A stretch of 16,502 nucleotides of DNA from a virus (Duplodnaviria; Heunggongvirae; Uroviricota; Caudoviricetes), in the IMG/VR virus record IMGVR_UViG_2718217860_000005, positions 1 through 16,502 of that record. One strand, given 5' to 3'. Positions 10,109 through 16,502 of the stretch are shown here, in pieces. Under the pieces are notes generated by a model. The model was given only the letters and a program-made list of their open reading frames with translations, made no database searches and was not told the origin of the DNA. Each line of letters begins with the position of its first letter. The stretch's first letter is position 1. Made by a program: the position numbers and the translations under genes.

Positions 10109-10522
10109 TTATCTGCTTGCAGGGAAAACAGGCCAAATAATATCAGGTGCGGTGCTGGTATCTGTTGCCGTCACAGCCTCGATATAATCCAGCACAACGT
10201 TAAGTCGGGTAGTTTCCTCTTGCGTCAGTTTGCGCCCGGCCTGCAGCTTTAACTGAATCACGCTGATATTGACCATTGCTGCGTCTATCAACGACTGTTT
10301 TTTCTGTTCAGCGTCAGCTACCAGTTCATCATGAGAACGTTCCGGAGTGGGTGGTGCAGTAAATACCCCGTCTGAATACGCCCAGCCGATTCCGGGCTGC
10401 TCACTGATATCAGAAATATTAATGAGCTGCAGATTATCCGGCACAGTGAATTCATCCTCGCCATCCCAGACAATGACATTCACAACCATCCCATTTTCAA
10501 TAACTGCATATGACGCATTCAT
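10109..10522 (-). CDS. tail fiber assembly chaperone (Tfa / gpG-like)
   Basis: The C-terminal motif DTSTAPDIIWPVFP matches the conserved Tfa C-terminus (lambda Tfa has ...VDTSTAPDIEWP...). The ATG at 10522-10520 shares its A with the TAA stop of the fiber gene (TAATG coupling). The ORF track's upstream start at 10546 would overlap the fiber C-terminus. Confidence 0.75.
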   Translation of the reverse strand: MNASYAVIENGMVVNVIVWDGEDEFTVPDNLQLINISDISEQPGIGWAYSDGVFTAPPTPERSHDELVADAEQKKQSLIDAAMVNISVIQLKLQAGRKLTQEETTRLNVVLDYIEAVTATDTSTAPDIIWPVFPASR

Positions 10523-12441
10523 TATGCAAACTCCTCGATAATACAAACCCCATCAGCACCTTTCCCGCCCGTCATACTGGTTCCGCTATAACCTGCATCG
10601 TATGCACCACCTCCGCCTGAACCAAATGCCCTGCCTCTAACGCCACCGCCAGCGCCTGCGCGTCCACCGCCACCCCAGTACGATGTTCCGCCTTCACCGC
10701 TGACGCCGATATTTCCGGACTGACCGTCGCCTCCATCTCCACCAGTGATGCGGATATCGCCAGTACTCGGCACACCTCCGTTACCGCCGTTTGTGTTTGT
10801 AACACCCACTTTCCCGCCACCTTCGCCACCAGGAGCAATTAACGATGCGAATACGCTATTCCCGCCCCTGGTGCCGTTCGTTGCACTAACACCACCGGCC
10901 CCACCTGCGCCGATAGTGACTGGATAACTATTCTGTGTCGGGGTCATTATTGAAATTATTGTTCCACCGGCCCCACCGCCAGCACCGAAAAACGTTTCAT
11001 TATTGGATGTAGCCTTGCAGCCGCCCCCTCCGCCACCGCCGCCCGTTATTGTGACCCTGATCCGTTTTGTTTCTGGTGATGGGGTATACGTACCTGATGA
11101 CGCGAAAGCCCGGGTACTCAGCCGGCGTCCCACGTATCCGCTTGTATCTCCCAAACCAAGATAACGAATAACCTCCTGTTTGCTTGTTTTAGCCAGAATA
11201 TCCCGTCCAACATTAGTCAGGGTTGTCAGGCTGGCTGTATCATTCCCCGTAAAATACGGTAGTTTGTCTGCCGCAGTGGCAAGGCCTGCCAGTGCGGTCA
11301 GTGTGGCGTCGGCAGGTTGTTTTCCATTGGCAAGGTCATATACAGCCTTCACAGCTTTTGGTGTGGCAGCCTGCGTTTCTGACGTGCTGTTAGTGGCGCT
11401 GCTGAGTTGCACGGTACCTTTTACCGTCAGTGAAGCTGCAGGCACATCCGTTATCTGGCTCCACGGGTGCGTGTGACTGACAGGTGCCTTACCTGCTGCA
11501 AGGTCATATGCCGCCTTCACTGCCTTTGGTGTGGCAGCCTGCGTTTCTGACGTGCTGTTAGTGGCGCTGCTGAGTTGCACGGTGCCTTTTACCGTCAGTG
11601 AAGCTGCAGGCACATCCGTTATCTGATTCCACGGGTGTGTGTGACTGACAGGTGCCTTACCTGCTGCAAGGTCATATACAGCCTTCACTGCCTTTGGAGT
11701 GGCAGCCTGCGTTTCTGATGTGCTGTTAGTGGCGCTGCTGAGTTGCACGGTGCCTTTTACCGTCAGCGAGGCTGCAGGTACACCTGTTATCTGATTCCAC
11801 GGGTGTGTGTGACTGGCGGATGCTTTACCTGCTGCAAGATCATATGCAGCCTTCACAGCCTTCGGTGTTGCGGCCAGTATTTCGGATTCACTGTTGGTCG
11901 CACTGCTTAACTGAGTAAAACCTTTTGCGGTCAGCGAGGCGTCCGGGTGACGTCGTGACTGTTCGTGCTCTGATATTTTGTCATCCACATACTTGCGGGT
12001 TGCCAGCACTACAGCAGGGTCGATTTTCAGGATGATATTGTCCGTACTGCTGGTAATCAGCACCATGCGCACGGTCTGGGTACGCCCACTGCCTTCAGCC
12101 AGTTGCGGCTTATAGCTTTCCGGGCAGTTACCCACGGCAATCAATGCCCCGGACTCATCAAACAAGCCCACTTCACGTATCCACCAACCGCCCTCGTTTT
12201 CAGGGATCACCTGTTCAGCAATAATCTGGCTGCTGTTCTGCGGGTCGATATAAAGCATATTCAGCGCAGCCCGGCGTTTCTCATTTACCAGTGCCGTCTG
12301 CTTTGCGTCCGGCGTTGGCAATACTCCGCCGCCATCGCCCACCGCCATATGGGTAATTTTTAGCGGCACACCGAGCGCGGCGGCGCTGGCAAGTTTCGCC
12401 GCGCCAATATCCGTCAGCAGGGTATAAAATTTTGTGCTCAT
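10522..12441 (-). CDS. H: tail fiber protein (gpH-like N-terminus, phage fiber repeats, glycine-rich C-terminal domain)
   Basis: 639 aa. The N-terminal approx. 165 aa resemble the P2 gpH baseplate-attachment region (MAVGDGGG, SYKPQLAEGSGR, HEQSRRHPDASLTAKGFTQLSSATNS). Then come 3.7 tandem 56-aa repeats of the SSATNSTSETQAATPKAVK type, and the last approx. 175 aa are roughly one-third glycine. Confidence 0.85.
   Translation of the reverse strand: MSTKFYTLLTDIGAAKLASAAALGVPLKITHMAVGDGGGVLPTPDAKQTALVNEKRRAALNMLYIDPQNSSQIIAEQVIPENEGGWWIREVGLFDESGALIAVGNCPESYKPQLAEGSGRTQTVRMVLITSSTDNIILKIDPAVVLATRKYVDDKISEHEQSRRHPDASLTAKGFTQLSSATNSESEILAATPKAVKAAYDLAAGKASASHTHPWNQITGVPAASLTVKGTVQLSSATNSTSETQAATPKAVKAVYDLAAGKAPVSHTHPWNQITDVPAASLTVKGTVQLSSATNSTSETQAATPKAVKAAYDLAAGKAPVSHTHPWSQITDVPAASLTVKGTVQLSSATNSTSETQAATPKAVKAVYDLANGKQPADATLTALAGLATAADKLPYFTGNDTASLTTLTNVGRDILAKTSKQEVIRYLGLGDTSGYVGRRLSTRAFASSGTYTPSPETKRIRVTITGGGGGGGGCKATSNNETFFGAGGGAGGTIISIMTPTQNSYPVTIGAGGAGGVSATNGTRGGNSVFASLIAPGGEGGGKVGVTNTNGGNGGVPSTGDIRITGGDGGDGQSGNIGVSGEGGTSYWGGGGRAGAGGGVRGRAFGSGGGGAYDAGYSGTSMTGGKGADGVCIIEEFA
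11326..11940 (-). repeat. in-frame tandem repeat array, 168-bp period, about 3.7 copies, inside the tail fiber gene
   Basis: CAGGTGCCTT recurs at 11481 and 11649, a 168-bp offset, and the blocks 11470-11640 and 11640-11810 are near-identical. Protein copies cover residues 168-223 (diverged), 224-279, 280-335 and 336-372 (partial). Confidence 0.85.
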
Positions 12442-15085: not shown

Positions 15086-15120
15086 TTGACACAAAAGATG
15101 TTTATTGACAATATATAAGT
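15086..15120 (+). promoter_or_regulatory. candidate sigma-70 promoter region for the DUF262 gene
   Basis: Two TTGACA hexamers (15086-15091 and 15105-15110) and an AT-rich TATATAAG stretch (15112-15119) lie 25-60 bp upstream of the ATG at 15144. The exact -35/-10 pairing is ambiguous. Confidence 0.4.
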
Positions 15121-15143
15121 TCAATCTAACAAGGAGAAAAATT

Positions 15144-16502
15144 ATGCCAAATGAAAATCTTGATATTGACTCAAGGACTACCGAGCAATTATACGAATGG
15201 TATTTGCAAGGAAATTTGATAGTCAATAGACGTTATCAAAGGAAACTTGTATGGTCTCTAGAAGAAAAGACTTCTTTAATATCTTCTATGCTGCAACAAT
15301 ATCCTATTCCGTTATTATTATTTGTTACCATCAATGAACAAAGAGAAATATTGGATGGAATGCAAAGATTAGAAGCAATTATGAGCTTCATCGAACAGAG
15401 ATTTTCATTAGATGGACAATATTTTGATTTGGACTCTATAGCTTTAACAAAACAACTTAAAGATAATGGAACTTTAATTCAGAAAGAACCAATCCTTTCC
15501 CGTGATTCTTCAGCAATTATTGCACGTTATCGATTTGCAATATCAGAATATAGCTCCACAAATGAAAATATTGACGAAGTATTCAGACGAATAAACTCAA
15601 ACGGGAAGATTTTATCCAAACAAGAATTACGTAGTGCAGGAACAGTTAGTAACTTCTCTGAACTGGTCAGATCGATATCAACATCGATCAGAGGTGATAC
15701 TAGCCATTCTGACATTATGAATCTCCAGCAAATGCACAAAATTTCAATCAGTAACGATAGATTGGAGTACGGGGTAAATATCGATAACCACTTTTATATA
15801 AAACATCATATTTTAACAAGACGAAGTATTCGTGATTCTGATGACGAGGAATTGATAGCCAATATCCTTGCATATATCAGTCTAGAAGAAAAACCCACAT
15901 CTGGGTCAACTTCTCTCGACACATTCTATGGTCAAGGAAACTCCTCTCATGCTCATGGTGTCAGACAGCAATTAGAGTCTTTCATTCAAACCAATAACGC
16001 TGCCACTATTAAGCAGAATTTCATAGCTGTATATGAATTAATTACAAGCCTATATGACGGAAAAAATGATACTTTTAGAAGCCATATTTTAGGGGAGGAT
16101 AATTCATCTCAAGAATGCCCTCGTTATTATCAAGCTGTGTTTTTGTCTATTTATGAACTTCTTTTCAACCAAAATATGCAATTAATTGATAAAGAAGGTT
16201 TATTCTCGCAATTAAAAAACACTGGCAATACCATAATTATGGTTACCGATGGTGGCCGCTGGGCTGCAAGCACTCGTGAAAAAAGTGTTAATGATCTTGT
16301 TGCATTAATAAGTCGTTACTTCCAACCTGCTCCTCAAAAGTATGTGAATCATGCTTGGGTAACTGAAATTCGCAATCTATTAACAAATTCTAGGGAAGGT
16401 GCGAATAAGCGGGGAAATTCTTCTCGGCTGACTCAGTCATTTCATTTCTTCATGTTTGAGCCGATTTTTTCTCCCGTAAATGCCTTGAATCAGCCTATTT
16501 AG
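15144..16502 (+). CDS. DUF262 / ParB-like (DGQHR-type) domain protein with an uncharacterised C-terminal half; candidate defence or restriction-like protein
   Basis: 452-aa ORF with an AAGGAG Shine-Dalgarno at 15131-15136 and a TAG stop at 16500-16502. N-terminal motifs RYQRKLVW, QQYPIP, DGMQR and FRRINSNGKIL fit the DUF262 signature. The sequence is AT-rich (about 35% GC in a hand-counted 60-nt sample) against about 60% in the tail genes. The ORF track's TTG at 15105 is an upstream alternative start that I discount. Confidence 0.65.
   Translation: MPNENLDIDSRTTEQLYEWYLQGNLIVNRRYQRKLVWSLEEKTSLISSMLQQYPIPLLLFVTINEQREILDGMQRLEAIMSFIEQRFSLDGQYFDLDSIALTKQLKDNGTLIQKEPILSRDSSAIIARYRFAISEYSSTNENIDEVFRRINSNGKILSKQELRSAGTVSNFSELVRSISTSIRGDTSHSDIMNLQQMHKISISNDRLEYGVNIDNHFYIKHHILTRRSIRDSDDEELIANILAYISLEEKPTSGSTSLDTFYGQGNSSHAHGVRQQLESFIQTNNAATIKQNFIAVYELITSLYDGKNDTFRSHILGEDNSSQECPRYYQAVFLSIYELLFNQNMQLIDKEGLFSQLKNTGNTIIMVTDGGRWAASTREKSVNDLVALISRYFQPAPQKYVNHAWVTEIRNLLTNSREGANKRGNSSRLTQSFHFFMFEPIFSPVNALNQPI

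Follow-up and report, generated by a model that had tools for sequence, protein, structure and literature searches.

The glycine-rich end of a P2-type tail fiber in an E. coli prophage is very likely a Pam3 gp24-type receptor-binding tip carried with its Tfa chaperone as one cassette

Tail-fiber mosaicism has long been recognised in P2 and other phages. A solved fiber of the kind considered here is gp24 of cyanophage Pam3 (PDB 7YFW/7YPX), a minimal protein of 280 amino acids whose N-terminal helical stalk docks directly on the baseplate. It contains a TNF-like beta-sandwich with strands extended into six long loops; each loop carries two glycine-rich motifs, 12 in all, which are stacked as a hydrogen-bonded lattice, and a GGGGxGG motif is found in the central loops (PMC9608196). 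The variable distal loop ends are the proposed receptor-binding part, and gp25, a chaperone like Tfa, clasps the domain while the fiber is being assembled (PMC9608196). Tips of this type are homotrimers that fold in a 3:3 complex with the Tfa-like chaperone, which is released afterwards. Another glycine-rich strand sandwich, that of the S16/T2-type adhesin gp38, also uses hypervariable loops as its receptor-binding surface (PMC9608196).

The window analysed here, a whole stretch of 16,502 nucleotides, is a P2-like prophage of E. coli adjoining ybjL with the gene order ogr, D, U, T, E, FII, FI, Tfa, H, I, J, W, V; the order V-W-J-I-H-G-FI is identical in P2. A preliminary description of this DNA had singled out the end of the tail fiber as a glycine-rich domain standing in place of the usual receptor-binding region. 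We conclude that this end is very likely a distal receptor-binding tip of the Pam3 gp24 type which, together with its cognate Tfa, forms one mobile cassette on a P2-type fiber. The tip is ordinary, one of many in a family of receptor-binding tips with a solved structure, and does not represent a new kind of system. In contrast to the minimal fiber of Pam3, the domain here caps a P2-type fiber of 430 residues.

Organisation of the fiber gene and its chaperone

The features of the fiber and Tfa genes are the following.

10522..12441, minus strand: tail fiber gene, homologue of gpH (open reading frame with translation; 639 amino acids plus stop)
11992..12441, minus strand: N-terminal baseplate-attachment domain, residues 1-150 (PF12571, E 8.7e-64)
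11330..11875, minus strand: shaft, a 168-bp tandem repeat in 3.2 copies encoding 56-aa Phage_fiber_2 units (Tandem Repeats Finder, PF03406)
11146..11328, minus strand: pre-tip segment, residues about 372-432, conserved and still homologous to P2 gpH (BLASTP)
10525..11145, minus strand: receptor-binding tip, residues about 433-639, a TNF-like beta-sandwich with a glycine-rich strand lattice of the Pam3 gp24 type (PF21722)
10520..10524, minus strand: TAATG overlap of the stop of the fiber gene and the start of the Tfa gene (sequence)
10109..10522, minus strand: Tfa, cognate tail fiber assembly chaperone, 137 amino acids (PF02413 Caudo_TAP, E 1.2e-20; phrog_188)

The fiber, which is annotated as 'tail fiber protein' in identical prophages (RefSeq WP_000104780.1), has the make-up of a P2 gpH-type protein, with an N-terminal tail-collar domain, fiber repeats (PF12571, PF03406) and a position between gpI and Tfa. 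Pfam recognises Phage_tail_fib over residues 1-150, Phage_fiber_2 four times and Gly_rich_2 over residues 450-636. The N-terminal domain is common to P2-like phages and shares 54% amino acid identity with P2 gpH; nucleotide identity with Peduovirus-type phages amounts to 96-98% and is confined to the N-terminal part of the fiber. The shaft repeat (92% matches, score 917 with Tandem Repeats Finder) comprises four PF03406 stretches, and two of its 56-aa units are missing from P2 gpH, where they appear as gaps in the alignment. Fibers plausibly come to differ in length through unequal recombination in this 168-bp repeat rather than through the glycine tracts.

Residues 1 to about 432 of the fiber align with residues 1-383 of P2 gpH at 54% identity (BLASTP), and homology extends over the N-terminal domain, the repeats of the shaft and the pre-tip segment. 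The similarity ends after '...VIRYLGL', at about residue 432-438, and none is found beyond; the last ~285 residues of gpH, plus gpG, are replaced here by an unrelated tip and Tfa. The idea that a different tip takes the place of the usual P2-type end was thus borne out: the tip is wholly different from that of P2 gpH, and the locus has neither a P2-type C-terminal receptor-binding region nor a gpG-type chaperone. Because the similarity to gpH stops near residue 432 and the Tfa is unrelated to gpG (E 1.5), tip and chaperone were swapped together, as one specificity cassette. Judging from the alignment, the recombination junction is the C-terminal end of the pre-tip segment. A mobile cassette made up of tip, Tfa and TAATG junction would have recombined onto a P2-type fiber just past '...YLGL', displacing the P2-type tip and gpG.

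A single Tfa gene coupled to the fiber by TAATG had been described and was found as such, the ATG of Tfa overlapping the TAA stop of the fiber at base 10522. Comparison of Tfa with the sequences in the PDB gave no detectable match to any solved chaperone, which sets it apart from Pam3 gp25. We infer the trimer geometry and the action of the chaperone: from its Pfam family and by analogy with gp25, Tfa would be the cognate chaperone that grips and caps the tip domain during trimer folding.

Family and fold of the glycine-rich tip

Positions 10525-11049 of the window encode fiber residues 465-639, of which 63 of 175 are glycine (36%, versus 5-9% in the remaining protein). The runs quoted in the preliminary description, TITGGGGGGGGCKAT, GAGGGAGG and GGDGGDGQSGNIGVSGEGG, are all present in the translation, and it was also right that collagen-like G-X-Y periodicity is lacking. 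The glycines fall on the three triplet phases 25, 22 and 16 times, so the tip does not qualify as a collagen-like repeat; glycine pairs at lag 3 are in mild excess (33 observed versus 22 expected). The fold already sets in before the first glycine run, some 30-35 residues upstream of it and near residue 433-440 (about window position 11145), where its start is placed by the Pfam match, by the AlphaFold confidence, which climbs from about residue 439, and by the end of the P2 gpH similarity. The first run, called G8 below, is the first glycine motif of the domain.

11020..11043, minus strand: first glycine motif G8, residues 467-474 (GGC GGC GGT GGC GGA GGG GGC GGC)

The tip belongs to Pfam family PF21722 (Gly_rich_2), which it matches with 54.3 bits against a curated gathering threshold of 24.3 and over most of the model (residues 450-636 correspond to model positions 4-224 of 226). 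When the tip was used as a single sequence to search the PDB, the Pam3 fiber was matched weakly (E 0.04) but over the whole domain, and with a profile compiled from 140 diverse relatives the same fiber was matched at an E value of 7.4e-21. The likeness to Pam3 gp24 comprises sequence homology and also the fold, a TNF-like beta-sandwich whose loops make a glycine-rich lattice. The AlphaFold monomer obtained with the diverse alignment had a pLDDT of 91.1, above 93 throughout the domain, and a pTM of 0.84. The 140 diverse representatives were needed for this success, as 81 close homologues gave a pLDDT of 54. Structure prediction of the tip, which the preliminary description had proposed as a check, therefore yielded a confident fold with strong structural matches to solved fibers.

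The family is large, and with the solved Pam3 structure the tip turns out to be of an ordinary, known type. In a viral structure library 260 proteins match the tip model at E <= 0.001, among them proteins of cyanophages, of Xanthomonas, Edwardsiella and Achromobacter phages, of mycobacteriophages and of giant viruses, and a sequence search matched 5632 cluster representatives (50% identity) at the same threshold. The domain is C-terminal in nearly all matches listed, in proteins of 220-1405 amino acids. NCBIfam holds no model for either the fiber tip or Tfa, and a full-text literature search on PF21722 / Gly_rich_2 found no paper. Some relatives were reached by one kind of search only: with tblastn of the tip against isolated phages, in which the low-complexity filter masks the domain, phage Goslar alone was matched, and the jedunavirus tips described below were reached only by a DNA search in 'distant' mode.

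In BFVD, proteins of Megavirus, Hokovirus and Edafosvirus annotated 'collagen-like' or 'glycine-rich domain-containing' match the tip model (E 1e-10 to 1e-11), so that phages share the fold with nucleocytoplasmic large DNA viruses. A further match of the family profile, to the N-terminal ~200 residues of RemZ (PDB 8gl8_D, 1114 amino acids; E 1.7e-5), hints at the presence of the glycine-rich domain outside phage fibers as well. The likeness to the glycine-rich domain of the ALK/LTK receptor kinases, a eukaryotic cytokine-binding ectodomain, is at fold level only. As regards gp38, the tip is part of the fiber itself and not a separate gp38-family adhesin capping gp37.

By comparison with Pam3 gp24, residues about 433-639 very likely form a distal receptor-binding domain, a TNF-like beta-sandwich whose strands are connected by long hairpin loops, each built of two glycine-rich motifs. 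Extended polyglycine/polyproline-II-like strands would pack as a hydrogen-bonded lattice like that of Pam3 gp24, with the glycines serving as structural struts. The most buried strands would need to be nearly all glycine, which would explain both G8 and the GGGGRAGAGGG segment. A review of polyproline-II bundles describes helices fully surrounded by others as all glycine, and runs such as G8 therefore find an explanation. Receptor specificity would be located at the ends of the loops, in short non-glycine stretches; that these ends are distal rather than proximal is suggested by the topology and by the description of Pam3.

Two other readings of the domain have to be set against this one. The high glycine content, and the low confidence of the AlphaFold run with the shallow alignment, might be taken as signs of a low-complexity, disordered or collagen-like spacer with no specific fold, but this reading is refuted by the confident model and its matches to solved fibers. 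It is further opposed by the want of a G-X-Y phase and by the individual glycines, which are conserved column by column in the 140 relatives, and we regard a spacer as hardly tenable. Even less credence can be given to the notion that the domain is an enzyme, since 'carbohydrate kinase', the label on many 308-aa E. coli homologues, has nothing but database names in its favour. A Pam3-type tip remains the reading that we prefer. Hundreds of 308-aa E. coli proteins named 'carbohydrate kinase' (for example P0023, P0035-P0037, P0055 and P0153) bear nothing but the Gly_rich_2 tail-fiber tip, and the single 308-aa copy viewed in its context (locus L005, 6001-6114) is a fragment adjoining tail fiber assembly genes. 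The label looks like a propagated misannotation, and a widespread mislabel can be corrected in that these proteins are tail-fiber tips.

Glycine tracts and loop tips among relatives

The preliminary description had suggested that the glycine codon runs are candidates for slippage-based length variation, and had proposed that the C-terminus be compared across relatives for indels in the glycine tracts. That comparison showed mostly fixed tracts and variable loops. Among the 140 diverse relatives, G8 is eight residues long in 132, and other glycine motifs are of fixed length in 126 to 135; length is looser in the third motif (106/140), the seventh (109/140) and the GGGGRAGAGGG segment (68/140). 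The non-glycine loop tips range widely in length in the same relatives, the first loop tip for example from 0 to 15 residues. Among the 120 best-matching E. coli allele (protein) clusters, which are 80-98% identical, the glycine motifs are essentially invariant, and substitutions cluster at T478, N522, T524, R525, V530, V545 and D569. The tip thus has the conserved glycine stem and the variable distal loop tips of the Pam3 type. As tract lengths are fixed and loops are variable, variation lies in the loops, the opposite of what slippage predicts.

If the glycine codons were slippage-prone, with length variation serving as a contingency or host-range switch, homopolymers or perfect repeats and frequent length polymorphism would be expected, as at simple-sequence contingency loci, and neither was seen. 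The glycine codons are mixed, homopolymers in the region reach at most 5 nt, and the only periodicity in G8 is a weak one of 9 bp in 2.7 copies (11020-11043, Tandem Repeats Finder). No indel was present in the domain in 116 of the 120 clusters, and collinearity with the query holds for all 36 full-length genome matches, which were sampled evenly across the ranking down to 86% identity. Part of the suggestion did stand, in that the remaining four clusters have in-frame deletions (G8 to G5 in three, G8 to G6 in one), which occur in at least two backgrounds. In the closest relative (the P0001 locus) the deletion is a clean 9-bp loss of GGCGGAGGG at a GGCGG microhomology, the flanks being otherwise identical. 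All four deletions are in the first tract, however, and no other glycine tract varies in these clusters. We conclude that the G5 and G6 forms are rare deletion alleles with no sign of a switching mechanism, and a slippage-driven switch is very unlikely. The tracts are better viewed, in line with the Pam3-type tip, as structural struts than as mutable repeats.

In E. coli CRE10 (L001, 1973-3844) the annotation splits the same fiber into two pseudogene fragments; the sheath gene of this locus is frameshifted and its tube gene is partial. We rejected this split fiber, the single frameshifted copy, as evidence of slippage because the frameshift in the neighbouring sheath gene points to a probable assembly or sequencing error.

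Spread of the cassette and the candidate receptor

Among 5426 complete E. coli genomes, 290 carry DNA of the tip, and 77 of its locations are on plasmids. The fiber-Tfa region is covered to at least 80% in 65 of these 5426 genomes, and the fiber region is present in identical copies in about ten complete genomes. On the scaffold of another myovirus (L007) the tip (98%) and Tfa (91%) lie, with an identical TAATG junction, behind a fiber of 352 amino acids, and on a ~90-kb plasmid the tip is carried by a fiber of 1060 amino acids. The ~90-kb plasmids with the tip look like P1-type phage-plasmids. The same tip, Tfa type and order recur in phage Goslar (vB_EcoM_Goslar; gp090 and Tfa gp089), where the Tfa is 64% identical to the one described here and the tip has 69% amino acid identity in the BFVD match, with a TM of 0.88. 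In contrast to the prophage fiber, however, the Goslar tip sits on a P1 gpS-like fiber of 1324 amino acids, in an unrelated jumbo phage.

More distant tips are found in jedunaviruses of Klebsiella and E. coli, whose gp24-like fibers (BUCT_49532 gp44, JD001, MMNM_27 and SCNJ1-Y TFP_Y) are about 50-55% identical over the whole tip, the GGGGGGGGC motif included. These fibers differ from the prophage fiber in being short (285 amino acids), in belonging to a minimal baseplate and in having no adjacent annotated Tfa, and dependence on the chaperone may thus not be universal.

Jedunavirus fibers are the only relatives with receptor data, and these data concern LPS. In the Klebsiella jedunavirus SCNJ1-Y, host-range escape mutations fall within the gp24 homologue's glycine-rich domain, and the protein, when purified, blocks DNA ejection triggered by LPS (PMC12671077). 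Mutations that evolved in phage MMNM lie in the homologous fiber, within its long loops between strands (PMC11633184). By analogy with these Klebsiella relatives, the receptor of the tip is most likely a lipopolysaccharide structure, and the epitope would likely differ from that bound by P2. The preliminary description had expected a receptor different from the LPS core used by P2; a different class of receptor is not established, because the Klebsiella relatives engage LPS. The escape positions T169/S209 of TFP_Y were mapped onto BUCT_49532 gp44, where the residues mismatch (numbering or allele differs), and they were not transferred to the tip described here. For Goslar, the literature search gave no information on the receptor.

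Outer-membrane proteins are the targets of the polyglycine-type adhesins found in T2/S16 phages, and LPS is therefore not the sole plausible receptor. The tip could have the fold proposed above and yet recognise an outer-membrane protein, as T2/S16-type gp38 does. This would agree with the structural resemblance to S16 gp38 that has been reported for the glycine-rich domain in Pam3 (PMC9608196), and with specificity residues that are few and localised, as expected of a protein-binding loop surface. With the Klebsiella relatives pointing to LPS, we consider a protein receptor possible but clearly the less likely choice, and keep a lipopolysaccharide structure as the favoured receptor. A bolder reading extends to the deletion alleles. 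An extended helix of the polyglycine-II type completes about one turn in three glycines, and loss of such a turn in the G8 to G5 alleles might alter tip geometry and host range. It is rather improbable that the E. coli tips combine such functional alleles with a receptor new for Gly_rich_2, which might be O-antigen or an outer-membrane protein, and with specificity set by about ten loop-tip residues, which might include T478, N522-R525, V545 and others. The practical gain is modest: for a tip present in about 5% of complete E. coli genomes, on prophages of the P2-like and other kinds and on plasmids of roughly 90 kb, the analysis supplies a template of the structure and a small set of residues that are candidates for setting specificity. 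These could aid host-range prediction or the re-engineering of P2-type phages, tailocins and delivery particles.

Near the tip, the remnant of a recombinase/invertase gene was observed in a prophage near yejM/tRNA-Pro (L005, 4616-6114) and on a roughly 90-kb plasmid (L006, 4300-8183); the former also carries alternative tip and Tfa genes in opposite orientation. This suggests an invertible host-range switch in which one arm can be formed by the glycine-rich tip; the window itself contains no invertase gene. On the strand opposite to the fiber, upstream of gpV in the accessory-gene slot of the P2-like prophage, an open reading frame that runs past the end of the window (15105-16502, plus strand) encodes a GmrSD_N/DUF262 domain (E 1e-17) and is probably a cargo gene directed against phages in the manner of type IV restriction systems; in strain CFSAN064035 it is truncated beside an IS1 element.
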